A stretch of DNA of 63,953 nt, filler included, from Basidiobolus ranarum (taxonomy: Eukaryota): NCBI GenBank assembly GCA_040143965.1. It is 3 parts of 3 records of this genome, joined end to end, with 100 filler letters (N's around TTAATTAATTAA, not from the genome) between each part and the next. Parts side by side here need not be neighbours in the genome. Positions count along the whole stretch, not along the records: positions 22,261 to 44,350 come from JASJQH010007068.1; 2 more parts are not named here. One strand, given 5' to 3'. The notes under the pieces are model-generated. The model was not told the origin of the DNA. It saw nothing but the letters and a program-made list of their open reading frames with translations, and did no database searches. How positions within the stretch are numbered: the stretch's first letter is position 1; every line of letters begins with the position of its first letter. Below, piece after piece: positions 22,161-55,035 of this stretch. A program made the translations under genes and the position numbers.

Positions 22161-22260
22161 NNNNNNNNNNNNNNNNNNNNNNNNNNNNNNNNNNNNNNNN
22201 NNNNTTAATTAATTAANNNNNNNNNNNNNNNNNNNNNNNNNNNNNNNNNNNNNNNNNNNN
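22161..22260. other. Assembly gap with artificial TTAATTAATTAA stop linker
   Basis: 44 N + TTAATTAATTAA + 44 N. Confidence 0.95.
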
Positions 22261-22346
22261 TTTGGGATGATTAAAGCACGTAAGCATTCACATTTTATTC
22301 GATTCTTTGGAAACACTTCATGCTTCGTTGTTCTGTCCACATTGAT

Positions 22347-22953
22347 TTAATGAGCACGACGGGATTCGGCGATGACATTGGACATCTCCTCAACCTTGGC
22401 CTTGGCACGGATGAATGTACCGAGTCTCTTCTTGGCGAGCTTACGGGCACGCTTATCCTTGGAGTTCTTCAACAATTCGAGGATACGACGTTCATAGGGT
22501 GCGAAACCAGCGACTTCACGGACAATTTCGCGAACGAACTTGACACGGTTGGAGGCAACCTACATCATCAAAAATCACTTGTTTAGCTATATGTCTCTTC
22601 AAAGTGTGTATATCTTTTCAACTAGTCCAGTCAACTCTAATCCTAATCTAAGCTATTTCGTGTCCATATCTCTTTCTGTCTAATTCTTCAACTATCCTCT
22701 CTTTTCGTATGCCATCATCCATAACAAATCGTGGTGGCATCCATCCAATTTAACTAGTACTTCTCTAGCTTATCCTCGTAGCGTTCATATTACGAGCAAC
22801 TCCATGCTATACTAACGGAATATTCTCAAATAACAAGGAAAAAAAGACACTTACCCCCTTCTTGTGAGAAGGCTTGACCTTCAACTCACGACGAGTAGTG
22901 ATGTGACCGCGGTTGGACCCGGCAACGATACCAGACTTTTGAATGACAGCCAT
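22347..22953 (-). CDS. RPL36: 60S ribosomal protein eL36 (exons 22953-22855, 22559-22347); missed by the ORF track
   Basis: Spliced translation [103 protein letters not shown]. Confidence 0.97.
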
Positions 22954-23598
22954 TGATTTCAGTAATTCTTCAAACGAATGGATTTCGTCGTGAAAGAAAC
23001 AAGAGAAAGAGCTATCAATTTGATAACCATCGGGGTCATAACATCTTTACTCATTTTCGATTGGTTACTCAACAAGTCATGTGATCTATTTATCAGCTTT
23101 TTCTGATTAACTTAGACTAGCATTTAGTTCATATGTTGTCGATGAAGAATGCTATGAATATTCTAAGGTGAGGATGTCTCATATTATGATGTAGAATTCT
23201 ATTTACTCCTTCCAATGAAGCATAGTATCTCAATGTAATATCTTGTAATACCACAGCACTAGATGATCTTTTATGAGATCTCTTATTGACAACCTTCATT
23301 TCCTGCTTTCCACTTTTCACTTCCCGATTTAGTTATATACTGATGGATAAATGTAAGATGTAAGATCTTGATCTATATTTTGAATGAAAAGTTTCCAACA
23401 TCTTTACTACTCGAAGGAAAGACTCTACCAGTAGATTGACTGCTTTCGAGGAACCCCTGGCTAATTTGGAATTTCTGGTGACTGCTTCCCCAGACCCCCA
23501 GCTCACTTTTACTTATTTAGCTGATTAATTTGGAGAATCATCTTCTTGAAATTTGTGAATTTCTTCCAACCACTGTATTGTCTACTTTCGCCAAAAGA

Positions 23599-24831
23599 AT
23601 GAGTTATAGAGACTTGAACCCATCATTGCGTACTATCATGACTCCTGGACCGGTGGAGGTAGAGCCTAGAGTTTTGAGAGCATTATCTACTCCTATTGTA
23701 GGCCAATTCGACCCCGAATTCACTGTCATTATGGATGAAACTATGGAAATGCTTCGAAAACTTTTTCAAACTAACAACCAATGGGCATTTCCAATTGATG
23801 GTACTTCAAGAGCAGGTTTAGAAGCAGTACTCAGTAGTATCATCGAGCAAGAAGATGTAGTGCTTGTACCAATTTATGGAAGATTCGGACATTTACTTAC
23901 TGAAATCGCTCAACGTTATGGTGCTCAAGTAACTAATATGGAAACTACTTGGGGACAGGTATTTGATCCAGCTGATGTCATTCAAGAAATCGATAGAGTA
24001 AAGCCTAAGATCGTCGCTATGGTACATGGTGAAACTTCTACTGGTTGTTTGCAACCTTTGAAAGAAATTGGTGAGGCATGTAGAGAAAGAGATATTCTGT
24101 TCGTTGTGGATGCAGTTGCATCAATTGGTGGTGTAGATGTTCGGGTTGACGAATGGAAGATTGACGCTTGCATTGGAGGTACCCAGAAGTGTCTTTCCGC
24201 TCCATCAGGAATGGCCCCAGTCACTTTTAACTCCAGAATAGAGTCTTTGTTATTAGAACGTAAAAAGGTTGAGCAAGGATTAACGGACCTAAAGGCAAGT
24301 GAGTTGTCAAAACGTAGGATGATCCGCAGCAACTACTTTGACTTGAGTCAATTGATGGATTATTGGAGTCCTGTTCGCTTAAATCATCACACTGAAGCTA
24401 CCTCTATGTTATACGCACTACGTGAAAGTTTAAGAATAGTATTGGAGGAAGGACTTGAGGCTAGATTTGCCAGACACCAACTTCACGAGAAAGCTTTAAT
24501 GCAAGGACTTCAGGCAATGGGGTTAGAGCTTTATGGTGATTCTCGCTCGAAACTTCCAGTTGTTACCTGTATAGCTATTCCTGAAGGTATTGATGGTGAA
24601 TCAGTACGTTCTATGTTGCTACGTGACTTTGAGATTGAAATTGCTAGCTCCTTTGGTCCTTTGAAAGGAAAAATTTGGAGAATAGGTTCTATGGGCTTCA
24701 GTTGTAGAAAGAAGAATATTCTGAGTGTATTGGGGGCATTGGAAGCAGTACTCATTCGACATGGTGCACAAGTAAAACCAAGTGAGGGAACTCAAGCAGC
24801 ATTGGATGTGTATCATCAACATCAAAATTAA
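23599..24831 (+). CDS. pucG: Class V PLP aminotransferase, bacterial PucG-type ((S)-ureidoglycine:glyoxylate transaminase-like), intronless, 410 aa
   Basis: RTIMTPGPVEVEPRVLRA, GQFDPEF, PIDGTSRAGLEA, VHGETSTG, GGTQKCLS (PLP lysine), SNYFDLSQLMDYW..RLNHHTEATSMLYALRE and EIASSFGPLKGKIWRIG match the Bacillus PucG pattern as I recall it. The first ATG is at 23599. Confidence 0.9.
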   Translation: MSYRDLNPSLRTIMTPGPVEVEPRVLRALSTPIVGQFDPEFTVIMDETMEMLRKLFQTNNQWAFPIDGTSRAGLEAVLSSIIEQEDVVLVPIYGRFGHLLTEIAQRYGAQVTNMETTWGQVFDPADVIQEIDRVKPKIVAMVHGETSTGCLQPLKEIGEACRERDILFVVDAVASIGGVDVRVDEWKIDACIGGTQKCLSAPSGMAPVTFNSRIESLLLERKKVEQGLTDLKASELSKRRMIRSNYFDLSQLMDYWSPVRLNHHTEATSMLYALRESLRIVLEEGLEARFARHQLHEKALMQGLQAMGLELYGDSRSKLPVVTCIAIPEGIDGESVRSMLLRDFEIEIASSFGPLKGKIWRIGSMGFSCRKKNILSVLGALEAVLIRHGAQVKPSEGTQAALDVYHQHQN

Positions 24832-24966: not shown

Positions 24967-27900
24967 CTAGGGTCTGGCTTCATATACATCAATGTATTTC
25001 TGAAGAAGATCAGTGGTAAGCTCAGGACACAATCCAAGGCCTGCATTAGTAAGCATTCCAATTGTGCGAGAGCAGTTATCTTTTTGGTAAGGAGTACGCT
25101 TGGAATCAAACTTTTCAGGCAAAAGTACACCAATTCTTGACGAGAAGGGATTGCTTTTATCACTTTGAATTTGTTGATACCATTCTTCGTAAGGTACTAT
25201 GGCCATGGGCCGTTCAAGCATGTTCGCCATCTGGGCTACGGATTCCAAATCGAGGTCATGGTGACTACTCAGATTAAACGCATTGCCAAGAGATGCAGGC
25301 TTGACTGACATATGGACGATGCTTCTCGTGACGAAATCAACTGGAGTAATATCTAAGTTTCCAAGTCCAGACGGCACCGAGCGACTGTGGAAACATCCTT
25401 TTAGCATAACATTTGTTGTATCCGTTGGTGATCCAATCCCATTTGTAGTGTCACCCATGATGGCTCCTGGTCTATAAATCGATACTTGGAAGCCACGTGA
25501 GTGAGCTTCACGAAGGATAAGTTCAGCGATAACCTTGGAGTAACAATATCCATTTGCAGCATCATCAAATGTTGCAAACGATGGTTCAATGAAGTTTTCG
25601 AATTCATCATATTGGCACCCCTTTTGTACCACTCCCAAAGTAGACACGAAATGAATCTGCTTTGATCTTCCAATGGAAGCCATCTTCAACATCTCCGTCA
25701 CACTATTTACATTGGCTGCTTTCAACATTGTATATGTGTAAACGAAGTTCACGTTGGCTCCATTATGGTAAATCAGATCGATGTTGTCCCCCAGATGTGC
25801 GAACTGTTCTTCGGTTAAGCCCAGGCGTGGCTGGGCAATATCTCCTAGTAAAATTTGAATGCGTGCGAAATCACACATATTACTTAGAGAATAGCCATGA
25901 AGATTGTTGCGTACACGGTTTAAGCCATCCTCCTCAGTATTACCACGGACAACACAGTAGACCTTAGCATGCGGGAATTTCTGAAGAATCTCAATAAGTA
26001 AGAAGGCACCAAGAAAGCCAGTAGCTCCAGTAAGTAAGATCCCATCGACAGTGGATTCTTCAAGGTCTCTACCCGTTTCATGAGTGCTCCTAACGGGTAT
26101 CAATTTCTCGTCGAGTTGGATCTCCTCTCGCCAATTTATCTGCCAGCTATGTGGTTTTGAGTCAGTATCTACCTGAGATAAAGTATCTCTGTTTTTTGCC
26201 TCGCCGTCAATAAGGCTAGAGAGCTGACCGAGACTGGTGTTTTGATAGATTTGCGGAACACGTAAGGAAATATCAAATATTTGCTTGATCCGCTGAAGTA
26301 AGTTGATAACAAGCAAAGAATTACCACCGACATGGAAGAAGTTACTCATCACGTTGACTTTATCAATACATAAAAGTTCCTCCCATATCTTGGCCAGTTC
26401 CAATTCCGTTGGTGTTCTTGGAGGAGCTGCCTCAATTTTTCCAATAGAGTTGATGAAACTCTGATCTGCATCCCGAAAGATAGCCTCTAATTTTTTCCGA
26501 TCAGTTTTTCCACTCGAGTTCATAGGTATATTATTCAATGGCGCCCATGTTGAAGGAATCATATGCTGTGGGAACACCTTTGACATTGCTAAGCGAATTG
26601 CAGCAATGTGATTATTTATCGCTTTGAGACTTTGCTCATCTGACAGTAAAGTAGGCTCGCAGTTATCCAAATATTCGTTGAAGCACACAAAGGCCACTAA
26701 AGCCTTACGATTTCCAGAAGGATCAGTCTGAGCTAGTATAACACAAGCCTGTGCAATATCAGTTTGCTGTTGTAAAATATGCTCTATCTCACCCAGTTCT
26801 ATGCGTAGACCATTCAATTTGACTTGATTGTCTTTTCGTCCTAATATCTCCACCGAGCCATGGCAATCAAACTTCGCAAGGTCTCCGGTTTTATATAGCC
26901 TCTCACCTGGTACATAAGGGTTCTGTACAAACGCTGTAGAAGTGAGATCTGGTCTATTTAGATACCCACGCGCCAATTGAGCGCCAGAAACACAGAGCTC
27001 ACCAATAGCACCGATCGGAACAAGGTTTAGAGCCTTGTCTAAGATGAAAATTCGATTAGTGCCGAATGGTCGCCCTATGTTGCTACATGGGGTATTGGTA
27101 GTGAAGTTCAATCTCTGCGTGCAATCAACTGTAGTCTCAGAAGGCCCATATCCATTGTGTAAGCAAACATGGTTTGCCCATGTATCTCGGACTTGTCTGC
27201 TTAGCATTTCCCCTCCAATGAATATTTGTTTCAAAGATGGTACATCCTCCGGTTTGATAAGACTAGCCACGGTAGTAGTGAGTGCAGTAGCTGTTATTTG
27301 CATATCAGCCATAATCTGAGTAAGATTTTCTAATAAGTTCTCCTTTGAGGCCAGGCATATGCATGCACCCTTATAGAGAGTGAAAAAGATATCTAAAATT
27401 GAAGCGTCAAAAGTATAGTTGGCAAACTGTAGAACTCTATCGTCAGAATTCAATTGAACTATAGATCCATATCCAGCCATGTAGTTGACTACCGCACGAT
27501 GTTCTAATAAAACCCCTTTTGGCACACCTGTGGATCCAGAAGTGAAGATAACGTAACAAAGATTGAGTGAAGACACTTCGGTAGTGAGGTTCTCCGTAGG
27601 ATATGCTCCAATGATGTCTTCATGGATATCTAGCATTACTAGTTCCAATCTAGTTTTTGATGTGAACAGAGTCTTATAACTAGATGTAGTAATGACTAAA
27701 CTTGCTTTTACCTCCTCTAGAATAAACATGTTTCGATCAAGAGGGTTACTTTTATCCATTGGGACGTAAGCTCCACCTGCCTTGAGAATTGCCATCATAG
27801 CGACAATCATATTGACCGATTTATCTAGTAAAATGGGAACCATAGTCTCTGGACCCACCCCTAACGAGCTAAGGTGATGTGCAAGTTGGTTGGCACGAGA

Positions 27901-30900
27901 ATTGAGCTCAGAATATGTGGCTGTTTCTGTCCTCTCAAACCGAATTGCGATCTGATTGGGAGTCAATCGCACTTGGTTTTCGAATATTTGATGAATACAG
28001 GAATCTTGGACTACCGGAAAGTTTGTCGAATTCCATCCAGTGGTTAGCAGCTCTTTCTCTATGGGTGAGATGGAGTTGATTGAATTGACAGTTGTGTTCG
28101 AGTCCTCAATGATATTGCGTAAAATTGTAGTGTAATGCTCAACAATCCAATGAACATCATCCTTTTGAATCAGATTATCATCATACACTGCATTGAAAAT
28201 GACTTCTTTGTCGGATACAATAAATTCTGCACATAACACGAAATTCACTCCCATTGAAGCTGACTTCAGAGTCATCGAGAAATCTTTTGAAGGTTCGTCT
28301 GCTTCTTCTGACGCATTTTGAATGATTACCAGAGTATCAAATGCTACCTGGAATTCTTTCTGAATATCTGTCAAGCTAGCATTACCAAATCGCAAGGTAT
28401 CGGCGTGTTTTTTGTGTAGTTTATGTAACAAATCGGATACCTTCATATCTCCGTTCAATAACACTCGACACGGAAGTGTGTTAATGCATGGTCCACACAT
28501 GTCCTCTATTCCGTTCACTGGAGTATCACGACCCCAATTTGTAACTCCAAAGGCAACATCATCATTGCTGGTGTAATTACGTAAAATCAATGTCCATACC
28601 ACCTTAAGAACAGTGGCAATAGTAATGCCGTTGGACTGAGCAAATCGATGCACATTATGGTCAAGTTTACGTGTAATGCTCAGTTGTGCTTGTGGTTCAT
28701 AGTGAGGGGAAGGCAACTTGACAAATGGAGTGATCGAAATGTCTTTTAATTCTGCTCTCCAAAATGCCATAGTCTCCTCCATATTTTGTTGTTGAAGGTA
28801 AGATATGTACCTGGAGTAGGGAGGTCGTACTTCAAGAGAATTCGAGTAGTAAGCAGTGTAAAAGTCGTTCATAATCATCTGCATTGACCACCCATCATAT
28901 AATGCGTGATGGATTGTCCATATGCAATACATATGTCGCGAGGATACATTCAAAAGTTTAAACCTCATCATGGGCTCCCCAAGAGTAATCCCTTTGGCAA
29001 GGTCGGAACTAAGAATTTGAACTAATTCTGCATCTACGTCGTTTTCAGTAGAAGAGATTGTTTGCCATGGTATTTGGTTGTTCTTAATGACGATCTGTAG
29101 CCCGTTGAAGTGCTTATATTGCAAGTCGGAAAAGAGAAATACTGTACGAAGAATGGGATTGATTCGAGCCACATGTTCCCACGAGTCTTGGAATCGTTTC
29201 ATATCGACTTGACCGTGAATTTCATATACTAACTGAGTTAAATAATTGCTAGAGTCTTTCAATGTCATGGCTATAAGACTATCCTGTAAACGTGAGCAAG
29301 GATATATATCTTCAATATTCTCGATGTCAATCCCGTTTGTCAGAACAACTGATTGAATCAATTGCTGAAGCTGAGATTCGTCCAAGTTTAGTAAAGAAAA
29401 TTCCTCAATGGTCTCTTCTTTGAAATGCGACTGATCCGAGGTGTTGATATTATTTGCGATTTTGGCAATCGTTGTGTGGTCAAATAATTGTTGAACAGTG
29501 ATATTGATTTCGTATTGACGTCGTGCTATTGAGGCAAGTTTGATAGCTAGAACTGAATCACCACCTAAATGAAAGAAGGAGTCATGTACCCCAATGAACT
29601 CGGGCTTTATGTGTAAGATCTCGCTCCATATCGTCTGTAACTTCCTTTCGATGCCAGTGCGTGGTTGCTCTTTCGCATCACTATTAGTATTGCTGAATGT
29701 TTCTAAAATCATTTCTCTATTTTCGTCGAATAATGATGCCAACTTTCGGTTATCCACTTTGTGATTATTGGTTAAAGGCAGGGCTGTCAAAGGAACCCAT
29801 ATCTTTGGAATCATATAGCTGGGAAGTTTCATTGCAATTGCATTGCGTATATCAGCTATCATCTTACATATATCCGATTTATGTTGTTCTCCAATTATCC
29901 CGGTCTGTTCTTGAGATGCGAATTCCTTTGTAAAGCATATGAAAGCAGTAAGAGCCTTACGCTCTGTTTCGGAAGATACTTCAAGTAGCGTAACATGAGA
30001 ATGCTTGATCCCTGGTAAAGACTGTATGATATGCTCTATCTCGCTCAATTCAATGCGAAGTCCATTTAACTTAATCTGATTATCTTTACGACCCAGTATA
30101 ATGACGGAGCCGTCAATTTCGAAGCGAGCAAGGTCTCTCGTTCTATACAATCTTTTCCCGTTTACTAATCGATGAGAAACAAACGACTCTGCATTAAGAT
30201 CGGGCCTATTCAAATAGCCACGAGCCAGCTGAGGACCGGCAGTCCATAGCTCACCAACAGCTCCAATAGGCACTGAGTTCATATTTTTATCAAGGATAAA
30301 ATATCTGTTGCCTCCAATAGGCCATCCAACATTACTGCAAAGCATTGATTTCGTGAAGTATTTTCTGAGTGATGTTATCACCGTCGTTTCCGTTGGACCG
30401 TACGCATTGATTAAGCATACCTTTCCGGCCCACATATCACGTACTCTTGTGTTAAGCATTTCCCCACCAACCATAAGCACTTTTAAAGAAGGAACTTCAT
30501 CTGGTGTAATAAGGCTGGCAACAGCAGTATTCAAGAATGTTGTCGTAATCTGCATTGTGTTCATCACGTGAGCCAAATTATTGAGAAGACTATCCTTGGA
30601 GGCCACACATAGACATGCTCCTTGAGAGATTGTTAGGAAGATATCCAAAACACACCCGTCAAATGTATAGTTTGCAAACTGCAAGGTTCTATCAGTTTCT
30701 TCTAGCGTGATTTCTGTTCGGTGGGCTTGTATATAGTTGGATAGGTTACGATGTTCAAGCATTACTCCCTTAGGAGCACCAGTAGATCCTGAAGTAAAAA
30801 TGATATAGCATAAATTCGTAGACTGCACCTCCGTTATGGGATTTGATATCGAATTGGCAGCTATGGAAAGTTTATCTGTATCAAGTAATAGCAGCTCTAT

Positions 30901-33900
30901 TCCCAGACACTGTGTAAAGATTTGCTGATATTTGCTGGTGGTTACTATTACACTCGTGTTTGCTTGATAAATAATGTTTAGATTACGCTCTACTGGGTTT
31001 GCAGTATCTAAAGGCACATAAGCACCTCCGGCCTTGAGAACGGCAAGTATAGCAACAATAGTGTTGATTGATTTGTCTAAACACAGGGAAACTATAGTTT
31101 CTGGACCAACTCCCAATGAAATCAGGTGATGTGCTAATTGATTAGCGGAGTTATTGAGCTGTTCGTATGTTATTGCTTCGTTATTTTCGAGCAGAATAGC
31201 CACATTGTTGGGGGTTTTTTCAACTTGAGATTCGAAAGCAAAATGAGCACAATCATGTAACTCCTCATAGCAAGAAGTGTTCCATTCTTTCATTATTAGG
31301 CGCTCGGCTTGAGATACGAAACTAACGGCATTCATCTGTGTATTTATATCAGTCCTTACCAAAGCCTCTACTATATAGTTAAATTGTTCACAACAACGTT
31401 TGGCTTGATCCGCGTTAACAAAGGAACTGTTATAGTCCATATGGTAAAATATCTTCTTGTTATCGGAGTTGATATTCAAAACAATGGCGTACTAGAGAAT
31501 GAAGTAAATGGATTAGTGATGCTATTTGATATTTCATCCCGCCAGTTAGATGCATAATCAAAATATAATTTACTTCAGTTGGTTCCAAAGGCACATCCTG
31601 CAAGAAAACAAGGCGGCCTTCTGGTGAAAGTGGTGGAGTATTATAATCATCTTCAGGTGACATTTCTCTAATAGGCTGGTAGTTTATAACCGTATTGAAC
31701 ATTGTTTCAGGTTCCTTCTGGTGATCCGAACTATTCAAGTCCTTTAAATCATAATCCTCATATGGCATCGCGGCCACATAATCTTCATGTATAGAATTTA
31801 AGAACATCATGACAGTAGACTCCTCCTCAAAGCGAATTCGTCGAGTTCGTACATTAATGCAAGGTCCTACAATGCTAGAAATACCATTGATTGGTATACT
31901 TCTACCGTTAAGTAGTTCGCCAAATACAACATCATCACAATTAGTGTAGTGGTGCAGCATGATGGCCCATGCAGCGCGTAAGAGAGTAGCCGTCGTAATC
32001 TGTTGACGCTTGGTAAATTCGGAGATTTCAGAAATAGAGATATCTAGTGTACTAAATTGTTGCAAGGTTTGACTGACTTCCTGATCACAGCTTACAAGCG
32101 TTGGGAAGTTGCAGGGTTGTAAATCCAACAAATAATCTTTCCAATATTCTTCCTTGCTAGCTGAGTAGCTCTGCTTATTGTGGTACTTATACGAAATAAA
32201 TTCACGATATGGTAACACTGGAGGAGGGGGCTTTTCATTATATATCGCCTCGATGTATTGGTCGATGATTCGACTGGACCAACCATCTATGATTGCATGA
32301 TGATAACTAACAATCATCTGGTGTTGGCCTTCATTCGTTGTTAACAAAGCCAGGCGAATATTAGCCTCTCCCAGGGGGAATCCTGCAGCGATATCATCCT
32401 GAAGATAGCTCTCGAGCTTTCTTTCAGCATCGTTTCTGTCACATACTATATGCTTCCACTCGGGTTGGAATTCTCGAGATACAACCTGGAGACATGTGGT
32501 TCCGGTAGAATTTGTGGAAAATGGATTCACAAAGAATTTGGTTCGAATGATCGGTATATCTCGAATAATCGTTCGCCAAGTATTCTCCAGCTTATTGAAA
32601 TCAAAGTCACCTACAAGAGTGTACACACTATGGATATGATAATGAGATGGATTCTTCATATTTCCAGCAATGGTGGCTTCTTGTATAGGAGAGCATGGGA
32701 ATATATCCTCCACTTCTCCAATATCAAAGCCTGATTCAGGCAAAAACTTTTCTGTAAGTAGCTTCAACTCTTTATCCGAGATTTCTAGGAGTGGAAAATC
32801 GGTTACGGTGAATTCTGCTTTCTCCATTTGGACGCAATGTTCCAATGTTTCACATAATGCCGCCTGCCAATTTGAAGACCATTTTTGAATCTCGGACTCT
32901 TGATGAAGACATTCGCTGAATGTTATAGATGCCTCAAGACGTTCGTCAACTAGACGGAGAGCGACATCAAATATCTCAAGGCGTTGCATCAAAGGATCTG
33001 AGTTCTGAAGATCAAATTTGTACTTCTCATCAACTTCTTGCAAAAAAGCATCTTGCTTTTCCAACTGTTGGAAACGCCCAAAATAGTTGAAGGAGATTTG
33101 CACCAGGTCTTTTTCATATTGTGAACTATCCTCCTTGTTGAGATAACGAAGTAAGCCGTAATGAATGCTCTTTGAAGCTATACGTTTGCGAATATCTTTT
33201 GTGTTCTTGAGTACATCTCTTACTCCATCATTGTCGTCCACATAAATCGTTACTGGATACATACAGGTAAACCAGCCTACAGTTCTGGATATATCGATTG
33301 AGTCATCCCATGGTTCTCGACCATGTCCTTCCATTCCCACTGTAAGCGCATCAGTGCCAAAGGTGTTGCAGTAAGATACAGCAAGAGATGAAAGCATAAT
33401 ATCAACTGGCTCAGTGCGGTATGCTCGGTTAGAATGCCCAAATAAAAGCTTAGTTTGGTGAGAGTCTAGAAGGAATGAGACTGACCGCTCGGAGTTCACA
33501 GTATTTTTGGAAAGTTTAGCAAGATCAGTGCAGATGGGCTCCGCTAATTTGGTAATTGGCCAAGCCGAAGTATCTAGAGCAGCGGCATGCTCGCTCAACA
33601 AATTACTCCAAGTCTTGAATGGCATTGATTTGAATAGGCACTCTTTGCCTTCAAGTAGTAACTCCAGATCCTCCCATATAATTCGCCAAGAGACAAAATC
33701 AACAACATAGTGATGAATTGCCATGAACAATAGCTGCTCACCCTGTGGCATATCGTATAATGAGAATGAGAATATCGGCCCAGTCTCTAGATTAAGGCTA
33801 CGTTGGCAATGGTGAATCTCTTTGCGTAGTTCGGCCACAGAAACCAAGGTTTTCTGCGTCACATCAAAATCTACTTGCTCCTCATTTAGTACTCTTTGCT

Positions 33901-36900
33901 CTAAAGTTCCATTTCTCTTGCTGAATCGTGCCCGTAGCATGTCATGATGGGTAACTAGACTTTTGATAGCCGTCTTAAGAGTTGACTGATTTATCGGTGA
34001 ACGGACCTTGAGCAACCAGGATTGATTAAAATGATTTTCGTTTCTTTGGTTTACTTCAAGAGACTGCAGCAGTATAGGCGTGAGCGCAACTACACCTTCA
34101 CCTGAGTGGATTTCGATAGAGTTCAAAATTTTTGATTCACCAACAACAGCAGCTAGTTGATTTATTGTTGGATAGCGCAATACATCTTGAACTGAAACGA
34201 GCAATCCGGATTGACGGCACACCGATGATAGTCTGATAGCAGAAATGGAATCTCCGCCAAGGTTATAAAATGAGTCATGGATTCCAATAGTAGAGGAGTC
34301 AATATTTAAGACCTCCGCCCAAGATTTTTGCAGTGTACTCTCGATATCTGTGCGTGGTTGTTCCGACGTTTGATCTAGAGATAAAGTAACACTTCTGATG
34401 GTCTTAAGGTCAGATTGAGCAAGCATTTTCAACAGACTTTTGCGGTCCGACTTGCCACTTGCGTTAGTTGGCATTTTGTTTAGTGGGACCCATATGGTTG
34501 GAATCATTTGCGAGGAAAGCTTATTGGCGGCAATCTGACGAAGATTGGATATATGTTTCCTAATCAAATTAGGATTCTGCAGGTTCACCAAGATCATTGG
34601 ATCACTGTTTAGCTCATTTTCTGGATCGTTGTCATCCAATAAATGTTTTATACACAAAAAGGCCACCAAGGATTTCTTGCCCTCTATATCTGTTAATGCA
34701 AGACTCACTTGTATAATCGGTTGATATTCGTAAAGAACCTGTTCTATCTCCTCTAGCTCTATCCGCACTCCATTAAGTTTAATTTGGTTATCTTTCCGTC
34801 CCAAAATGGTAACTGACCCATCTAAATTGAATCTACCCAAATCACCGGTTTTGTACAATCTTTCACCTTTCATGAGTGGATGTGGAATAAATGCTGTCAT
34901 TGTAAGATCGGGCCTATTGAGGTATCCACGGGCTAGTTGGGGGCCACCAACACAAAGTTCTCCTATCGCTCCAACAGGGACAAGCTGAAGATTTTCGCTC
35001 AAAATGTATACCTTGTTTCCACCAAAGGGTCGGCCAATATTGTTACAGGGTACAGACTGATCTACCTTCACTCTTTGTGTACAATCGACTGTTGTTTCGG
35101 TTGGACCGTAGCCGTTATTTAAACAGACATGCTTGGACCATAAGTCACGCACAGGTTCTGTTTGCATTTCTCCACCCAATAGTAGCATTCTCAGTGAGGG
35201 AACATTTTTCGGATGTAAAAGGCTGGCAACTGTAGGTGTCAGTGCCATTACGGTAACCTCCATTTTACGAATTGTCTCCTCTAGGTTTGAAAGAAGATTA
35301 TCTTTCGACGCCAAGCAGATGCAGGAGCCACTGCAAAGACTAAAGAAGATGTCTATAATAGATGCATCGAAAGTATAGTTTGCGAATTGTAGCACCTTGT
35401 CATCTGGGCCCAGATTGATGATGGACTTGTACCCAGCTAAGAAATTGACCACAGCCTTATGCTCTAACATGACGCCTTTTGGTGTACCAGTCGATCCAGA
35501 TGTAAACAAAACGTAACACAAATTAGATGCTTCAAAATTCGGTACGTTCGGGTTGGTATTAGTACAGTTCTTAAAATCCACTCCATCGACTAGAACCATT
35601 TTCACGTGGGACAAATCAGAAAATATTTTTTCATAATTTCTTGTGCTAATTACAACTGCAGAGTTGGATTCTCTTACAATATGTAGATTGCGCTCTGTGG
35701 GGCTAGATGGATCAAGAGGCACGTAAGCCGCACCAGATTTAAGGATTGCCAACATAGAAACTATCATATTCACTGATTTATCCAAGCACAGTGGTATGAT
35801 ATTTTCTGCACCAACACCTAGTGAGATTAGATGATGAGCCAACCTGTTAGCTTGACTGTTCAAATCTTCGTATGAAACCGATAGCTTATCCTCGAACTGA
35901 ATAGCGATTTTATCCGGCGATTCAGCTACGTGTTGCTCGAATATCTGATGTACACATGTATTCTCTATCACCAAGAATTCTGGTGAATTCCATACAGTTG
36001 TTTGCAAATGCTTCTCCGAAAGTGGAACGATATCTAACGAATCCAATGTTTGATGCTCTTGAGAATGCACTAACGATGAGACAATAGCATCGAACTGGCT
36101 CAAGAGGGATTCAGCTTGCTCCACATTGAGAGCGCTACTATTGAATTCGAGCTGGTAAGATATTTCATCTTCTATACATTGTACCTCCAGTCCACAGCCA
36201 TACTATAAATAAAATGGATTAGTAACCAAGATTAAGTAGCAATCAAATGAGTCATATATACCTCAGTAAAGTTAATACATTTGGTAAGGTTGAAAACCGA
36301 ATCTTCACCAGATGTTTCCACTGGTCCTAAGTAGTTGATTATGGTGCTGAACAGGGGATTTTGAGAGTTGAGGCCAGCCCATCGATGAATGTTTTGCAAA
36401 CTGCACCGCTGGTACGGAGTACTCGTTATGTAATCTTGATAAATTGTTTGTAACCACTGTGTTACCTCCGATGCCCCAGGAATCTGAACTCTGCATGGAA
36501 GGGTGTTTATACAAGGCCCAACGATGTTTGCGATGCCAGATATGGTCTGGTTTCTTTTTCTGCCGTTGAAAATGTACCCGAATATAACATCGTTACTGTT
36601 CAAATGCTTTTGTAACAAAATTGCCCATGCTGCCCGGATAAGAGTAAATATGGAGATATTTTTTCTGTTTACAAACCACTTAATCGCCGATAGAGATACA
36701 CTAAATGTCCCTTCAATTTGATTTGGATTTATGTTTCTAGATTGTGCACTCTCAACTTTTGGAAAAATGCATGGCTCAGCGTTCTTCAAATAATTCTTCC
36801 AAAATTTCTTTTCTCCAGCGGTGCTGGATTGATCGTTCTCTATGAAATATCTATACGCCAGCGTCTTAGGGCGAGGTGTCTGGCTATAGATTGCTTCAAG

Positions 36901-37581
36901 ATCTCTGCAAATCAAGTTAGCTGACCATGTATCCATGATGGCATGATGCCAACTGATTACAACCTGATTATTACCACTACCAGTTTCCAATAAGATCAGT
37001 CGTATATTAGGAGAGCCAAGAGGGAATCCTTTGGTGATTTCAGCGTCGATAACCTTTTGAAGAGATTGTTCTATATCACCTTGACACTTGATGTGTTCCC
37101 ACTGGGGACACATTTTACGGAGCACAATCTGCAGGAATGTTACATCATGAGAGTAAGGATTGAATATGAAACATGTTCTCAAAATTGGATTTGCCTGAAT
37201 CACCATATTCCAGGCTTCTTGGATTCGTGAAAAGTCGAACGAAGATTCTCGGATCTCCATTACATGGTGGACATGATAAACAGCTGAATTTCTTGCATTT
37301 CCTGCGATGAGACCTTCTTGTACTGGGGAGCTTGGTAATATATCTTCTACTTCACTCATAGCAATGCCCACGGAAGGTAAATGTACATTGATCAACTTTT
37401 CTTGAGCATTCTTGTCCATCGATGATAAGAAAACGTGTGGAGATTCTATAGTAAGGGATTTTGCTGTTGGATTGACTTTGAGATCACGATTCTTAATGGT
37501 TGTAGAATCATTTCCAGTACAATTAGTTCCTGAGTGCGTTAGGCCAGAGAACGCGTGGCTGTTCTTATTAATTGCGGGCAT
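24967..37581 (-). CDS. Trimodular NRPS C-A-T-E-C-A-T-C-A-T-R (exons 37581-36262, 36202-31574, 31491-24967; ~4157 aa)
   Basis: C cores HHAIMDTW, HHAIIDGW and HHALYDGW. Three A domains (FTSGSTG.PKGV, YGPT/SETT, LYKTGDL/LYRTRDL, GRKDNQ.KLNG.RIEL). T motifs LGGDS, LGGDS and VGGNS. E domain HHYVVDFVSW, EGHGRE, RTVGWFT, FNYFGRF. R domain LLTGATGFLG, YCYSK, YRPG. Two phase-0 GT..AG introns (36261-36203, 31573-31492) with CTAAT branch sites join the three ORFs. Confidence 0.95.
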
Positions 37582-37661
37582 AGCTGCAAGTTGTTCGGTA
37601 GCAGGGAGTATGAAGGAAACCTACACTGTATGATGTGGGCTCCAGTGAGTGTACTTTGATA

Positions 37662-37667: not shown

Positions 37668-40053
37668 GAGGTGGACTTCGGGATCCGATGAGCTCAGCAT
37701 AAGCATATAGATAATATTTCCACGGCGTAAATGATATTTTGTTCGACTTACCCTTTGTCCCACAATAATTGCATAGCTTTGGGTGGACGTTAATATTTTA
37801 CTGATATTATTCACTTCACTAGCTAACCCTGGCCCAATTCTACAGCTGTACCTTTGCTACTCTGCTTCTGGAATAATGTAAGATCCTGTGGAGAAAAAAA
37901 TACCGTTGTTTTCAACCAACCAGAACAAAGTTGCTTCTCTTTAGTTGAACCCTGATTTTAACAAACGAAGATCATATCTTACTTAAGTACATAACTTACT
38001 ATGAGGTAACGTCACACATCGAACTAACACTAAGCCACCGCAAGGGTATTCCACGCTGTTACATCCATCTAAAATTTGACGTACGTTAGTCACTAATCTG
38101 TCGTCGTTTCAACGGCAATTGGCTTGAATCTAATGATAAAAGACATTTTAAGAAATCCCGATTCATCACCAACCACTGCCGCTTACCACAGCCAGTTACC
38201 CAGCTTGTAGGGTTGGACTGCAGCTTCGAACTGAGTTCCAAAGGCCAAATATTTGCTGTATTTATTGTTCCTAAAATAGTCTTAGTCACAACTAAACCTG
38301 GGGTATGTAAATCCAAATTTAGTATTCTCTGTATTTGTTTGGCGTTGTTGATTGACACTGGGATTATTGGTTCGATTAGTTGTTTGATCGAAGAAACCTT
38401 GATCAGTAGTAGAATGGATTGGAACACACTTGTAGAACTTGGACAGGAAGATACCATATATGGATATGGTATTAGATACTGTTTACCTCATTACATGCTT
38501 ACACAATAGGCTGTTGAAAGCTTCCTTGCTTTAGCCCGGGATAGAAAAGAATAGGGGGAGTGACACTAGAGGTCAGTACGATGCAGTGCTATCCTAGAGA
38601 AACGGTTAGGGCAATCTAGTCTATATTTGGAAATTAGCATTACTGGTCTAGTCGCGTATATATGGTATTAAGACTCTTCTTGTATTACGACTCAAAGTGA
38701 CAAGAAACATACATAATTGACTCGGCCTGTAACACTTATTACAGAGGATGTTTCTGTAAAGTATTCAGGGGTGTGCGACTTGGGGTTTGGTGAGTTGGCA
38801 GATAAACTTACGTGTAGGGTATTAAATGACAACGAGGAATATCATAGCTCAAGTTGCACACGTAATAAATCAGCAAGTATGCATCAAGATGTTGGGGAAA
38901 TAGTTTAAGGGGTTTTGATGATTCGACACATTAATTTCTGTACACATGCATGATATGGTATGTTTTGTGTGGGTACTCCAATACTCAGAGGATCTGCACG
39001 AAACAATATATTGTTGGATTTTCATTCTGCCATACAATAATTGTAGTCGCAAAGAAGAACTGGACTGAAGTTGTTGAGTAAGCACCTGGATTTTAACTAG
39101 CTATGCATATCTCATACAGCATTTCACTTCGGAATATCTGATGATGAAATATTACTCGGACAGTGTTGAGTTGTACTACTTCTTATTACTAGCGGAAAGA
39201 TAGTGAATGTAGGATGCGCCACTTGAAAAGTCCCATTTTATTTTACTTCGATAGGTGAAACCACCAAAACCAAAACCAAATCCACATGCTTTGTCTTTAC
39301 ATCTTAAACATATTTATGATGGAATCCAAAGGGAAAGGCTGTTAACTATCTTTGTGGTATGTATCAGCTTCCATAGTATTTGGTAGCGCAAAGATTCATA
39401 TGCATTTTGCCATATTGCAGCGATGTCAAGAATAAGAAAATTATGACAACTTTGTAGAATGTAAACAAATATTTAATTAGTCATGCAAATACTTGTTTTC
39501 AACTCCATCATCCTAGTTCTAATTGTCTCCCTATTCCTAATTTTACAAAAATCCTGACAAGTATGTCAAACACTCCATGCCAGCTACTTGTGATAAGTAG
39601 CCAAATGTGGATGAGTTAATTTACACAACATATCAAAACCCTTCCAAACATATATAATAGACTTTATTAGGTTGTGAGCTAATAGTCCACAGCTTTCTGG
39701 AACAAGTCTGATACACTCAACGAAAGGTGATGAATTATATCCCTTGGTCAAACCAAACTAAGCCGCTTAACCTTTAGCAGTGCCTGTTTTAAATGTGGAC
39801 TTCTCAGTTACGATAGAGAGAATCTGTTAAAAAATCCTAGAAAAGTTCAGTTCAGTATTACATAAGCAGCGAAGTTGACTTTCCAAAGTCTTTTTTACTC
39901 CCAGTGGTATTACGAATGTCATTCATGGTTATTTGTTCTATCCAAAAATCCATTCAAAATATACCTAAAGTCCATACAATTTTTCCAAATCAATATAATG
40001 CAAGCGATCTTCGATGTTACCAGATTTTGTATGTGCGTATGGTTAGGGAGATT

Positions 40054-40203
40054 CTATGTGTGGCGAGGATATTCTGTGAGTAGCTATGTGTGGAGAGGAT
40101 ATTCTGTGAGTAGCTATGTGTGGAGAGGATATTCTGTGAGTAGCTATGTGTGGAGAGGATATTCTGTGAGTAGCTATGTGTGGAGAGGATATTCTGTGAG
40201 TAG
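40054..40203. repeat. Minisatellite, 5 x 30 bp (CTATGTGTGGAGAGGATATTCTGTGAGTAG)
   Basis: Five contiguous copies with no spacers and one substitution in the first copy. Confidence 0.97.
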
Positions 40204-40551
40204 CCCCTCCTCCATGTCTTAATCCGGCCCGATCACTAGACAGGCATCGTGGGTAACTCTTGATAAACGTGCCATAGATCGTTATGTCATCAATACCACT
40301 TCTACTAATACCACTACCCATACACACACTGACAGCTCATAAAAGAATAGCCTAGAGCCTGCCCCCATAATTCCTATTGGAATGATGCGCTTGGGCTTTG
40401 ATTCAATTGATAGTTACTGAATACCACACTAAATTCTATTACGAACCACCTCCCATTAATATCCGTGCGCTCATGAATGTCTCAGTCCGAATTCTATTGC
40501 CATTGAATCGTTCAACAAATCGCTTGAATCCGATAGTTATCTCACCAATGA

Positions 40552-40618: not shown

Positions 40619-41577
40619 TTATATAGAAAACAACGAAAAACCGCTCAACGATGCAAGATAAGAATCGGGTTGAGGATCAGGATCAGGGCGAATGCTACTG
40701 TGAGGGCTAGGATGATACTGTTTGTAAGAGAATGAGGGTTCTGTTGGGGAGGTTAGTGTTACGGATATCTCAGAGGACCAAGTGGCTTCAGAACTGGTGG
40801 CTTCAGTTGTCCAAGCTATTGGGGACCTTTCGTAATTTGTACTATCCAACATTGACACCCCGTAGTGTATGGAGGTATAGTAATTGATTACATTCTCCAA
40901 AGTGATGATTTTCTCTCGGAGAACCGAACAATTCAAGCAGCTATCTAATGGTGCATTCATGTGCTTTGTCTCAAGCTCATGTTGAAATATTGGTCGTGTA
41001 TTGATGGATGAAGCTGATGAGAGCGGTGAGGGAAGTAACACCTGGCTGGCAGCTACTTGTGCCTTTGGGGCCAAACACTTGGAACTCACCTTGTAGTAAG
41101 GTCTTGACATGCGTTGGATTAAATAATACGAATCTGGTTCGTCTCGCTTGAAATGTTGATGTGCATATACTATTGCTGAGCTATCACTGCTTAGCTTAAT
41201 CTTTCGCCGATCTGATACCCGGTAGAAGCCATATATCTGCTCCTAGCGTTAGAATATTAAGGATGTTATAAGCTTTAACAAGTATGAATTACGTTTAATT
41301 GACGGGAGAATGAGGTGAATTTACTGGTCTCGTAGTATTGAGGAAGGACTTTCGAGGCAAGCTTCTTTGTATCTTGAATGATAAATGTGTCTCCTGATTG
41401 CTCCCAGAATATAATGTCCGAGAAATCGTTTTCGGCAAGCATACTAGATGGAAATTTGGACTTTAATGTATTGCTAGTGAAGATGTTGCAGTGACAGGGG
41501 TTCAAAAGTTAAGAGAATTACTTGCAAAGACTTCGCACAAAAGGAGCTACACGTAGGCGATATTTATCGGTTGGCAT
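40619..41577 (-). CDS. HSF-type DNA-binding domain transcription factor (exons 41577-41522, 41443-41293, 41236-40619; ~274 aa)
   Basis: Spliced APFVRSLCNML..DIIFWEQSGDTFII..LASKVLPQYYETSKFTSFSRQLN|IYGFYRV..YAHQHFKRD..LIQR is an HSF winged helix. It is followed by a short coiled segment (LREKIITLENVI) and an S/T/P-rich tail. Confidence 0.88.
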
Positions 41578-43737: not shown

Positions 43738-44350
43738 TGTCATAATCTAATAATAGAGAAGTTCTATTTGTAGTGGATCAGTATGCCAAGATCATAATCA
43801 TGACAGTATCCCCTTCTTTAGTCATGGCTTCCAGACATCATAGGGCCAGGTTTTTCTGGGTAGGCTTCATGAAACTCCTGGCAAAGTTCCTTGGAATTAG
43901 AAAGATTTGTTGCTGGCTCCCACAATTGATCATTTGTTGAGTATCCCTTCCAGTCCACTAAATATTGCAATTTATGTTGATAAATTCTGGAATCTAGAAT
44001 TTTGCTAACTTCATATTCAGGGTGTTCTTCCACTTGGATTGCTGGGGGTGGGTCAATGGATCAGCCATGGAAGGTGTTTCTGCCATGTGGCTCTAAGAGA
44101 GACACATGGAATACATTATGGACTTTGAAATAGGCAGGGAGTTCAAGGCAGAAGGCTACTGAATTGATTTGCTTAATAATCTTAAAAGGCCCTTGTCTTT
44201 TATGATCAAGTTTATCACAAGGTCTAGTGGTTTTGATATTTTTCCGGAGTAGCTAAACATAATCTCCTGGCTTGAGATCTGGGCTTGGCTTTCTTTTCTT
44301 ATCAGCAAAGTTCTTGTATTGGGATTGAGCATGCTCCAACTCAGATATTG
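43738..44350 (-). mobile_element. Decayed Ty3/gypsy chromovirus 3' end: integrase GPY/F region, chromodomain, polypurine tract and LTR start
   Basis: [60 protein letters not shown] with two in-frame stops. The PPT AAAGAAGGGGATAC is followed directly by TGTCA at 43805. The far LTR boundary is uncertain. Confidence 0.92.
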
Positions 44351-44450
44351 NNNNNNNNNNNNNNNNNNNNNNNNNNNNNNNNNNNNNNNNNNNNTTAATT
44401 AATTAANNNNNNNNNNNNNNNNNNNNNNNNNNNNNNNNNNNNNNNNNNNN
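44351..44450. other. Assembly gap with artificial TTAATTAATTAA stop linker
   Basis: 44 N + TTAATTAATTAA + 44 N. Confidence 0.95.
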
Positions 44451-44856
44451 CCCCTCTTTTCATCCTTACCCTCCCTTACCCTTACCAGAACATCTATACC
44501 CTAACCCCTTCTTTGTTTTGTTTGAAATAAAGATTTCATCTGTTGGTGACTGTCTCCCCCTAACCCTTTGGAACATTGGGTAGTTGTGAACAACAATGAT
44601 ACTTTGAAACCTCTTTAGTATATTCCAATACTCTGAACTGAGTTGAGATTACAAGTTGCACATTTGCAAATCTTCCCAGTAAAATAAAAATATGCATGTA
44701 ACTAGTAACCCCAAATTTGGGGAGTCCATCTCTGTTATTTGATATGTGCATATTGCAACTCTCAAAAACGTGTGTAGTTGAGTATATTAAATGAACTAGA
44801 TTAATAATTTTATGATGACTGATACGAACATCTTTTCTGCAAATATGGATATATCA

Positions 44857-46824
44857 TCATAGAGTTATCTCTTGTGAGGCACTCATTTTCTTTTCATCTT
44901 CAGTGCTATCTGAAACGACAGAAGGTTGGTCTTTCGAGAACCATATTAACGTACATATCCCTACGATTGCCGACAAAATGCATCCAGCCATAGCCCATTT
45001 TCCCTTTGCCGTGAAGGTCCCGGGAAGAGGATTTGGTCCGGCTATATATCCACTGAGATCTAATCCTTGTTTGCCTACAGCATTTCCATTAGTTTTAATT
45101 CCTTGAGTGCTGCAAATGTCAAATGATTGTTGAGGAATCTTGATACTTTCTTGTATCTGCTGTGGTGCCTCAATGAACGTAGCAGTCAAACCAGCTTCAA
45201 AATGCCATTCAATGTGGCAATGAAATGGCCATATTCCAGGATTATCGTCGCGGAACCGAAATACTACATAGCCACCCCCAGGTACTTGAACGGTATCCCT
45301 ACGAACGGGATTTGTTTGCTCCTTCACTGGATTGGTAGTGTAGTCATACGCCCCAGCACCCGCAGCGCTACGTCCCATCACTTGAAATTGATGTCCATGC
45401 AGATGAAATGGGTGCTCATCACCATCCCAATTGTTGATTACCAACTCTATCATCTGGTTATGTTCGATAACTATAGGATTACTGTATTTGCCATAGACTC
45501 TCGGATCATCGGACAGCGCTCCCATACTAACTGCAGTAAACAGCGAGGGGACTTCCGGCGCTATGTACGTAACGTTGTTGAATAATGCCCGATTCATTCC
45601 GTTATCCATAACGTTGAAAAATACATTAAGAACTATTCGGTTGTCCGGAGGTGCTGAAGCAGCAGCAACTATTGGAACCATAGTGGTATCGTCAAACTCT
45701 GTGTCTGACTGTGTGGTATTTGGCGGCAAAGTATACAGAGGGGCATTGGCACTGTATGTTATAGTAGCATTGATATTAGGATTGAGATTTGGATTGGTAG
45801 CGGCAAACATTGAGACATCTATATCGGCATGCATAATGAAATTGTTGGCAGTAGAATTTTTAGTGCGTACCAATACGGAATACCGTTGGGCTGCAGTAAT
45901 CGGCAGAACCTTTATCGTCTGGGAAACAACGTCCACCCCGTCTGCCTCAATGATCTCCAAGTCATGCCCATCAATGCGAAAGTTGAACATGGAAAAAGCT
46001 GACATATTTATGATCCGTAAACGATAGACCTTTCCAGGGACAAAAGCAAAAGTGGCGTTTTGAGACCCATTAATCACACCAGCATCCGGGACTGGCTCAA
46101 CCCCTGTTGGGTTATAGATACTCAGATATTGGGACATGAGCACGCTATGTTCCTCATAGTACCAGTCGTATAACGCCACAATATATTCTGCGTCGTATGT
46201 ATAAACTTCTTTTTTGGCATGCAAGATAAGGGGGGCTCTCAGACCATCCACATATTGGCCAAGGTAGTGGCCATGTATCCAATAGGTTCCGGACTGCTGC
46301 ACAGGAATGTTATATGTGAAGTTTCCACCAGGCGGAATGGGGCTATAGAGATCGAAATTAGAAAGGCGTTATACTGGACATGTTTAGAAATCTTACCATT
46401 GATGAAACATAGCTGCCCCATCGAAATGGTTGGTTCCATTCTGCAGCAATCCGTGACAGTGGAGGGTGTTTCCTACATCAAGGGAATTATACTAGAAATC
46501 TGTTAAATTCGATTTCGATATATTTAACTTGCATATATCTCTTACCACATTCACTATCAGATTGTCGCCCATTGTTGCTTCCAAAGGAGGAACTCTGTAG
46601 TAGAAAATATAAAGCCATTGAGCATTTAATCATCAGGATATTATTAAGGGCACTGCTTACGGGAATTGCCCATTTACGCCGATAACTCTGCGAGGATGTC
46701 CTCCAGTTGGATCAATGCTATTAACATAGGTAATCTTCCAGTTGTAGACCACATCCGCAGCTTGGATACTTGAGGCCAATGCAGTAGCAGAAAGTAGTAA
46801 CTTCCAGAAGTACTTGTGCGACAT
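44857..46824 (-). CDS. FET3: Multicopper ferroxidase Fet3 (exons 46824-46661, 46594-46546, 46491-46397, 46342-44857)
   Basis: Signal peptide; Cu motifs LHCHG, YWIHGH, HPFHLHGH and FHCHIEWHFEAG; ferroxidase-type acidic residues in GVEPVPD and RRDT; C-terminal TM helix; divergent from FTR1. Confidence 0.93.
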
Positions 46825-46992
46825 GGCTTATTGTTCAACGAAATCCGCAGAACGATGAGTGTGAAGGATATGAAATCTAACCAAACTGCCAAGCGGATAT
46901 CAAGCGTTTAAATGGATCTGACGTTTTGCTGCTCTTGGATATTTTGATTTATGAACGTTATCGTCTGAGCATATACTCACTCTTTTCATTAT

Positions 46993-47001
46993 TTATCTGA
47001 T
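46993..47001 (-). promoter_or_regulatory. ATCAGATAA, matches the ATCWGATAA iron-responsive GATA-factor (SreA/Fep1/Urbs1-type) site
   Basis: TTATCTGAT on the plus strand, ~170 bp upstream of the FET3 ATG in the shared FET3/FTR1 promoter. Confidence 0.5.
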
Positions 47002-54800: not shown

Positions 54801-55035
54801 TCTCCACTAGGCTCCCTATACCCTGCTATTACTAAAATTTCCCCGAATGCTAAGGTATTTTTAACGTGCGTGATCCCCCTCACAAACTCACATCATTGCT
54901 TAGCTTACTAGCTCTTCCAATATCCCTCATCGTATCCTTAACATAAGCTCGATATTAGCCTCGGATTTTTCAGAGCACCAATTTTATCACTAAGAAACAC
55001 ATCCACCCACCCCTCTATATCTCTTACACATAATC

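Follow-up and report, generated by a model that had tools for sequence, protein, structure and literature searches.

A pucG-type aminotransferase gene of probable bacterial origin beside RPL36 in the fungus Basidiobolus ranarum

The pucG reading frame and its relatives

In this study we analysed a stretch of 63,953 nucleotides from Basidiobolus ranarum (assembly GCA_040143965.1), referred to here as the window, in which an intronless gene of the bacterial pucG type lies beside the gene for the ribosomal protein RPL36. A preliminary description made from the sequence had proposed that this gene was acquired from a Firmicute by horizontal gene transfer (HGT). According to our analysis, the open reading frame (ORF) very probably encodes a functional PucG/HpxJ-type aminotransferase which was obtained from Bacillota or a close bacterium by an ancestor common to two or more Basidiobolus lineages. 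The gene is located as follows:

23599..24831, + strand: intronless coding sequence of a pucG-type (S)-ureidoglycine-glyoxylate aminotransferase (UGXT), 410 amino acids, recognized by its ORF, Pfam family PF00266 and matches to the structures 3isl and 3nnk

The ORF extends from ATG to TAA over 410 codons in a single frame with zero internal stops, and the stop-to-stop frame, which starts at 23521, contains no in-frame ATG upstream of it. The encoded protein carries a class-V (fold-type I) pyridoxal phosphate (PLP) aminotransferase domain (Pfam Aminotran_5, PF00266, E 9.2e-28, residues 36-350), and its residues 4-406 align to residues 5-408 of 3isl with one 1-residue gap. Since the alignment with the bacterial homologues is end to end, the gene has no intron and the protein neither an N-terminal extension nor a targeting peptide. 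The earlier claim of an intronless gene is thereby borne out by an uninterrupted frame collinear with its bacterial homologues. The TQK motif with its PLP lysine, K197, is intact, and the HGETSTG, DGTSRAG, VDAVAS and WRIG motifs are also in place. Moreover, we found all three motifs that had been named in the preliminary description, RTIMTPGPVEV, PIYGRFGHLLTEIAQRYGA and SNYFDLSQLMDYWSPVRLNHHTEAT. The protein ends in ...HQHQN and has no SKL-type end or other end resembling a type 1 peroxisomal targeting signal (PTS1), in agreement with the lack of a C-terminal SKL described before. The window protein retains 111 of the 113 columns that are invariant across 118 non-fungal rows, the exceptions being N46D and G277S, as well as 63 of 64 near-invariant columns. 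The catalytic core is intact.

Among solved structures, the best match was PucG of Bacillus subtilis (3isl, E 2.8e-192, 641.8 bits), followed by HpxJ of Klebsiella pneumoniae (3nnk, E 5.9e-132, 443.2 bits), while the next one reached 286.7 bits. Eukaryotic alanine-glyoxylate aminotransferases (AGTs) matched at 2e-72 for an insect enzyme (2huf), ~2e-61 for human AGXT (1h0c), E 1e-35 for Arabidopsis AGT1 (6pk1) and E 1e-24 for yeast Agx1 (2bkw). The proposed affinity to PucG rather than to the fungal Agx1 type is therefore clear from the values for 3isl and yeast Agx1.

In the protein homology search we considered the best 120 of 7959 scored matches, one of which is the window protein itself. 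The closest relative in this set is ORX80997.1 of Basidiobolus meristosporus (86% identity, 402 amino acids), which is also the only fungal relative among the matches listed. All other rows named for an organism, save two from Propionivibrio, belong to Bacillota and reach up to 80% identity. They come from Paenibacillus, Fodinisporobacter, Cohnella, Fictibacillus, Aneurinibacillus, Brevibacillus, Ammoniphilus, Priestia, Neobacillus, Peribacillus, Psychrobacillus, Aeribacillus, Pelosinus, Sporomusa and Azotosporobacter. The remaining rows are metagenome proteins without an organism name. Proteins of Paenibacillaceae, Fictibacillus and Sporomusa are 75-80% identical to the window protein, and those of Bacillus sonorensis and some Cohnella (67-68%, with 68% for B. 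sonorensis and Cohnella thailandensis) are less like it. Thus, the description of the gene as a PucG of Bacillales held for its PucG affinity and its Bacillota relatives, but the nearest proteins are not those of Bacillus itself, as the 68% to B. sonorensis illustrates. An exhaustive search covered 1.84 billion cluster representatives, of which 150 were listed and 20 of these looked up by name. Beyond the pucG cluster the identity dropped steeply, the next clusters standing at 51%, 48% and 44%. The names obtained are those of a UGXT of Rhodospirillales at 51%, a Calditrichia protein and only three eukaryotic clusters, namely marine-protist transcripts (42%) and the AGTs of a midge and of nematodes (34-38%), the others being unnamed.

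Phylogenetic trees were built without the loci L003, L039 and L040, which contained in-frame stops as extracted. The FastTree phylogeny comprised 160 rows, i.e. the 120 best proteins and 40 of 43 loci. In this tree the two Basidiobolus proteins were sisters (support 100) inside a 118-row clade (100). Apart from this pair, the clade is made up of Bacillota, unnamed rows and the rows from Propionivibrio. The fungal pair stayed by itself, as not one of the other 118 rows joined it. For IQ-TREE (LG+C20+F+G4, posterior mean site frequency model, PMSF) we picked 63 rows for named taxa and spread, and left out L042 (very long), L043 (compositionally odd), L034 and most of the unnamed near-duplicates. 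The fungal pair was again supported (100/100), within a Bacillota clade of 30 rows (100/99), a wider clade of 47 rows (97/88) and a UGXT clade of 49 rows (100/100). This last clade includes rows which JGI names ureidoglycine-glyoxylate aminotransferase, and it excludes the animal AGTs. A constraint that unites the fungal pair with three animal AGTs was rejected by the approximately unbiased (AU) test (log-likelihood difference 76.9, p-AU 0.00032). The tree with bacterial PucG and eukaryotic AGT that had been suggested as a check places the pair inside the Bacillota clade. Together with the best hits and the rejected eukaryote monophyly it speaks for the proposed acquisition from a Firmicute, with the donor resolved to the level of Bacillota only. 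These comparisons revealed no broad fungal clade with vertical inheritance, the orthologue of the sister species being the sole fungal relative among the matches listed.

A bacterial affinity of the Basidiobolus gene is firmly indicated by these comparisons, and the two fungal copies, judged by their sequences, share a common origin. G277S occurs in both fungal copies and the position is G in all 118 other rows; C317S is likewise common to both, and none of the 118 other rows has S there. These shared residues point to one acquisition before the Basidiobolus lineages split. The direction from bacteria to the fungus follows from the distribution, since many bacterial families, often with operons, stand against one fungal genus, and from the levels of identity.

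A separate observation concerns the Propionivibrio rows, i.e. the locus L010 of a metagenome-assembled genome and the proteins P0084 and P0102. They represent a betaproteobacterial PucG that is placed among the Negativicutes of the Bacillota clade, and the surroundings of L010 contain an allantoate amidohydrolase (AAH), a transporter of the major facilitator superfamily and a carbamate kinase. Either the module as a whole passed from one bacterium to another, or the sequence was binned wrongly.

Chromosomal setting of pucG

The window consists of three contigs joined by spacers (1-22160, 22261-44350 and 44451-63953), and pucG lies on the middle piece of 22,090 bp (22261-44350), a size identical to that recorded for the contig of this protein. 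The following features were assigned to this piece and its two borders:

22161-22260, no strand: artificial spacer N44-TTAATTAATTAA-N44 at the left end of the pucG contig
22347..22953, - strand: RPL36 (eL36), 103 amino acids, exon 1 22855-22953 and exon 2 22347-22559 (Pfam Ribosomal_L36e, E 2e-32)
22954..23598, no strand: divergent intergenic region of 645 bp between the start codons of RPL36 and pucG, defined by coordinates
24967..37620, - strand: large non-ribosomal peptide synthetase (NRPS) in three frames, C-A-T-C-C/E-A-T-C-A-T-R (Pfam Condensation, AMP-binding, PP-binding, NAD_binding_4)
36203..36261, - strand: spliceosomal intron of 59 nt in the NRPS (GTATAT..TACTAAT..TAG), read from the sequence and joining frames a and b in phase
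40622..41508, - strand: gene with an HSF-type DNA-binding domain, split across two frames (PF00447, E 1.6e-14 and 1e-3)
43821..44252, - strand: remnant of a Ty3/gypsy integrase SH3 domain and chromodomain at the contig end (SH3_Tf2-1 E 4.5e-16, Chromo E 4.3e-15)
44351-44450, no strand: artificial contig-join spacer N44-TTAATTAATTAA-N44 at the right end of the pucG contig

From RPL36 to the right end of the contig there is not a single N. Accordingly, the gap-free contig claimed in the preliminary description exists within 22261-44350, but the window as a whole is interrupted by the spacers at 22161-22260 and 44351-44450. Linkage arguments across these two joins are invalid. Cdc37, PGI, EF-Ts, an ankyrin protein, FET3/FTR1 and a KA1 kinase are situated on the other two pieces; therefore Cdc37, PGI, EF-Ts, FET3/FTR1 and the kinase have no physical linkage to pucG. 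More generally, windows used for scanning can be spacer-joined contigs, and arguments based on the same contig must check for N44-TTAATTAATTAA-N44 joins. On the third contig, a FET3-like multicopper oxidase (44860-46368, -) and the FTR1 iron permease (48561-49226, +) are divergent neighbours and form the classic fungal pair for high-affinity iron uptake.

The gene resides in a eukaryotic chromosome. RPL36 on its left contains an intron of 295 nt (22560-22854, GTAAGT...TAG), and exon 2 shows 99% identity to RPL36e of B. meristosporus, compared with no more than 86% for other fungi. On the right, the 59-nt intron of the NRPS demonstrates eukaryotic residence. With introns in RPL36 and in the NRPS, and an HSF gene split over two frames, the spliced neighbours reported earlier were recovered. 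Moreover, RPL36e (ORX80996.1) and PucG (ORX80997.1) of B. meristosporus have consecutive accessions on the same contig of 42,253 bp, and the RPL36-pucG junction is therefore also present in an independent assembly. Neither the 645-bp region nor the rest of the window contains remnants of bacterial neighbour genes (best tblastn E 0.056).

The codon usage of pucG resembles that of its host. Relative synonymous codon usage correlated with that of the host genes of the window at r = 0.74 (0.84 for the NRPS against the host) and with that of eight bacterial orthologues at -0.52 to 0.61. These eight orthologues share an amino-acid identity of 0.68-0.80 with the window protein and a third-position identity at identical residues of 0.30-0.45, from which we conclude that synonymous sites are saturated. 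The GC content of pucG is 0.41 overall and 0.30 at third codon positions (GC3), similar to its surroundings. It is thus very unlikely that pucG is a contaminant, and it is not a recent arrival. The statement that the gene does not belong to a contaminant contig is hence upheld by spliced flanks, host-like codons, saturated synonymous sites and the conserved adjacency of RPL36.

The NRPS comprises ~4,200 codons and is convergent with pucG, their stop codons lying 135 bp apart. A second frame change at ~31453-31492 (-) offers only a 37-40-nt GT-AG candidate (GTACGC...AAG) and could reflect an intron of very small size, a frameshift from sequencing or a genuine lesion. The homology search for the NRPS covered the reductase region and proteins of 1186-3775 amino acids; an orthologue of ~4,200 amino acids in Basidiobolus would fall outside this range. 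In this range the named relatives of the reductase end (NAD_binding_4, E 3.3e-62) are bacterial only, mostly cyanobacteria, with 28-37% identity. By homology, the NRPS is therefore weak evidence for a fungal context. It was probably taken up from bacteria at an earlier time and independently of pucG. Bacterial-like NRPSs in Basidiobolus have been published, and that of the window fits this pattern (PMC7466969). A joint transfer of pucG and the NRPS was considered and dropped as unsupported, as their nearest relatives and identities differ (Bacillota at 80% versus bacteria at 28-37%).

Some further observations were made along this contig. An ATG-initiated ORF of 88 amino acids at 22320-22586 (+) is the antisense of RPL36 exon 2 and not a gene. 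An identical RPL36e is recorded twice (ORX80993.1 and ORX80996.1) on the same 42,253-bp contig of B. meristosporus, and the RPL36 cluster at 90% identity holds 8 distinct sequences from B. meristosporus and B. ranarum; together these point to much duplication of RPL36 in Basidiobolus. In the gene-poor interval that separates the NRPS from the HSF gene there is a tandem repeat of ~27-30 nt in five copies (~39950-40230), which translates to VWRGYSVSSY on the + strand and THRISSPHIA on the - strand.

Function and rival explanations

PucG and HpxJ catalyse the transamination between (S)-ureidoglycine and glyoxylate in the catabolism of purines and allantoin (PMC6522883, PMC13751858, PMC11880463). 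Based on its domain, its nearest full-length structures, its clade and its invariant residues, the window protein is predicted to be a UGXT of the PucG/HpxJ type. It would act as a glyoxylate-dependent aminotransferase that makes glycine. In the proposed mechanism, K197 would bind PLP, and the enzyme would shift the alpha-amino group of the donor onto glyoxylate to yield glycine; with (S)-ureidoglycine as donor, oxalurate would be the other product, as published for PucG of B. subtilis and HpxJ of K. pneumoniae. Given the lack of an N-terminal extension and of a PTS1, the protein is probably cytosolic. Such an enzyme would stand at the branch point where ureide nitrogen is turned directly into glycine. 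As to its history, the acquired gene would have been inserted beside RPL36 and would since have taken on host codon usage without gaining introns. It may now be transcribed from the 645-bp region that it shares divergently with RPL36, and this region is possibly a shared promoter.

The gene context of bacterial relatives is informative in this respect. Of 26 close bacterial loci (identity of 67% or more), 14 have an AAH homologue in their fetched flanks, and in 8 of these it lies directly upstream of pucG; in Paenibacillus caui a gap of 5 bp separates the end of AAH from pucG, and this AAH exceeds the NF006768 cut-off. Among distant bacterial loci, 4 of 17 have an AAH homologue in their flanks. 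Carbamate kinase is located near pucG in 6 and GlcD in 4 of the 26 close loci, so that at least one of the three occurs in 20 and none in 6.

Several observations weigh against our interpretation of a functional PucG obtained from Bacillota. Enforced monophyly of the 45 Bacillota-type bacterial rows without the fungal pair was not rejected (log-likelihood difference 16.4, p-AU 0.211). The AU test accordingly did not establish strict nesting inside Bacillota, and the grounds for such a placement are the support of the branches and the distribution of the taxa. The rows nearest to the fungal pair in the tree, Fictibacillus, Fodinisporobacter and Paenibacillus caui, are weakly supported as neighbours (84/41 for the pair with Fictibacillus gelatini), and the fungal lineage is long, with ~0.36 substitutions per site for stem and tip, more than the branches of its nearest bacterial neighbours. 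The exact nesting and the donor family are hence not firm, and the donor is narrowed no further than Bacillota. At the level of the protein, two columns that are invariant elsewhere are altered (N46D and G277S), and none of its 19 NCBIfam matches reached the equivalog cut-off (best 196.6 bits versus 600). No UGXT-specific model is among these 19, and the missed cut-off reflects the NCBIfam library, not the protein. In addition, no AAH (pucF), regulator, transporter, carbamate kinase or GlcD gene was detected in the window (best tblastn E 0.056), and the route described for fungi runs through allantoicase, by which ureidoglycine is not formed (PMC13751858).

With regard to the origin, the AU result would also permit a pair outside the sampled Bacillota-type clade. 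In this respect it would suit an ancient vertical eukaryotic gene that was lost nearly everywhere but in Basidiobolus, or a transfer from the fungus to bacteria. Such scenarios are extremely improbable, as 75-80% identity to Paenibacillaceae, Fictibacillus and Sporomusa exceeds the 68% to B. sonorensis and C. thailandensis and clashes with a domain-level split. Eukaryote monophyly was rejected, the nearest other named eukaryote stands at 42% among the 20 of 150 representatives looked up, and bacterial copies are found in pucF-pucG operons across many families. An assembly artefact, in which bacterial reads or a bacterial contig were misjoined to fungal DNA, might be suspected because RPL36 lies just ~90-700 bp from the left contig end and because an identity of 80% to the proteins of extant bacteria is high. 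We nevertheless consider it very unlikely. The adjacency of RPL36 and pucG recurs in the B. meristosporus assembly, and features that are spliced or restricted to eukaryotes flank the gene on both sides. Its codons are host-like with third positions saturated against all 8 bacterial orthologues, two derived residues are common to the fungal copies only, and bacterial neighbour genes left no remnants in the window.

The role of the enzyme is less certain than its origin. If the transfer is accepted, ureidoglycine-glyoxylate transamination in the salvage of ureide or purine nitrogen has about an even chance of being its physiological function. Ureidoglycine as the physiological donor requires an AAH elsewhere in the genome. 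A somewhat less probable reading of the same transfer is a general glyoxylate aminotransferase that makes glycine with alanine, serine or another donor and would clear glyoxylate from the fungal allantoicase/ureidoglycolate-lyase route or from the glyoxylate cycle. The missing pucF on the contig and in the window would suit this reading, as would the 4 of 26 close loci that have a GlcD-type glycolate oxidase instead of AAH, with glyoxylate as the constant partner. The UniRef name of the B. meristosporus orthologue, alanine--glyoxylate transaminase, and allantoicase as the described fungal route (PMC13751858) point the same way. It is opposed by the retention of 111 of 113 columns invariant in a clade of which the characterised member acts on ureidoglycine and by AAH as the commonest bacterial neighbour (14 of 26 loci), and the absence of AAH covers the contig and the window only. 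Some other physiological role is unlikely. Recruitment of pucG as a tailoring enzyme of the NRPS, whose terminal reductase would free a peptide aldehyde that the aminotransferase turns into an amine, appears more improbable still. The idea draws on the convergent arrangement with only 135 bp between the stops, on the thioester-reductase domain at the end of the NRPS and on general chemistry, the usual acceptor of PucG, glyoxylate, being an aldehyde. The logic of aldehyde release followed by transamination is found in other NRPS systems. However, the near-complete retention of PucG-invariant columns argues against a new substrate, and the very different nearest relatives of the two genes argue against an arrival as a unit. 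If true, it would mean a hybrid biosynthetic locus built in the fungus from two separate bacterial acquisitions.

Within the preferred reading, a PucG-type enzyme acquired from bacteria, a bacterial-type ureide route in a gut-dwelling fungus would be an ecologically sensible adaptation. Basidiobolus inhabits the gut of vertebrates and has been characterized as a gastrointestinal symbiont of amphibians (PMC7466969), reptiles are named among uricotelic animals (PMC13751858), and 16 nucleobase transporters of the NAT/NCS2 family are reported for B. meristosporus (PMC6308229). Since pucG either came or has persisted without the partner that normally accompanies it in the operon, it provides a test case for the use of a single operon gene in a eukaryote.

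Comparison with known systems

The window protein resembles B. subtilis PucG (3isl), which belongs to the puc regulon of purine catabolism, in its full-length collinearity, in its class-V fold family and in the TQK, HGETSTG, DGTSRAG and WRIG motifs. In contrast, the window gene is located in a fungal chromosome, is monocistronic and divergent from RPL36, has host-like codon usage and lacks both an adjacent pucF and a PucR-type regulator. It is also nearer to the orthologues of Paenibacillaceae, Fictibacillus and Negativicutes (75-80%) than to Bacillus (68% for B. sonorensis). HpxJ of K. pneumoniae (3nnk) is a full-length match of the same family (E 5.9e-132), but it represents a more distant branch, whereas the window protein groups with the Bacillota-type sequences. 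The eukaryotic AGTs (1h0c, 2huf, 6pk1 and 2bkw) have the Pfam family and the acceptor glyoxylate in common with it; they are far more distant, and a joint clade with the animal AGTs was rejected. Targeting of eukaryotic AGTs by a PTS1 or an N-terminal presequence has no counterpart in the window protein, which has neither signal.

The closest counterpart is ORX80997.1 of B. meristosporus CBS 931.73, annotated as 'aminotransferase, class V family protein'. It is an orthologue that was sister to the window protein in all three trees, has the same RPL36 neighbour and shares G277S and C317S. Its 402-residue model contains an 8-residue gap and scrambled residues 34-46, by which 7 otherwise invariant columns are broken, whereas the window copy is clean. 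This anomaly is probably either an artefact of the gene model, i.e. a mis-called intron or a frameshift, or a local lesion.

Large-scale HGT into Basidiobolus has been published and lowers the surprise of a pucG transfer. Tabima et al. (2020) reported that HGT candidates make up 5%, 3% and 2% of the genes in three Basidiobolus genomes, and that 112 gene models in CBS 931.73 derive from Firmicutes, the second or third commonest source (PMC7466969). In their set, 61% of the candidates were intronless and codon usage did not differ from that of the host (PMC7466969). Their criteria also comprise a read coverage within 2 SD of the scaffold mean. The main text of that paper contains neither 'aminotransferase' nor 'purine', and its supplementary tables may list the orthologue. 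Our literature search found, within the library searched, no paper joining Basidiobolus with ureidoglycine. The window gene fits the published profile, with bacterial best hits, fungal genes on both sides on the same scaffold, no introns, and host-like composition and codon usage. It is therefore a well-documented addition to the known HGT in Basidiobolus and not a new phenomenon. As a clean transfer of a metabolic gene from bacteria to a gut-associated, early-diverging fungus, with its RPL36 neighbour conserved in two assemblies, derived residues common to both copies and full codon amelioration, it can be used to date or calibrate HGT within Basidiobolus.

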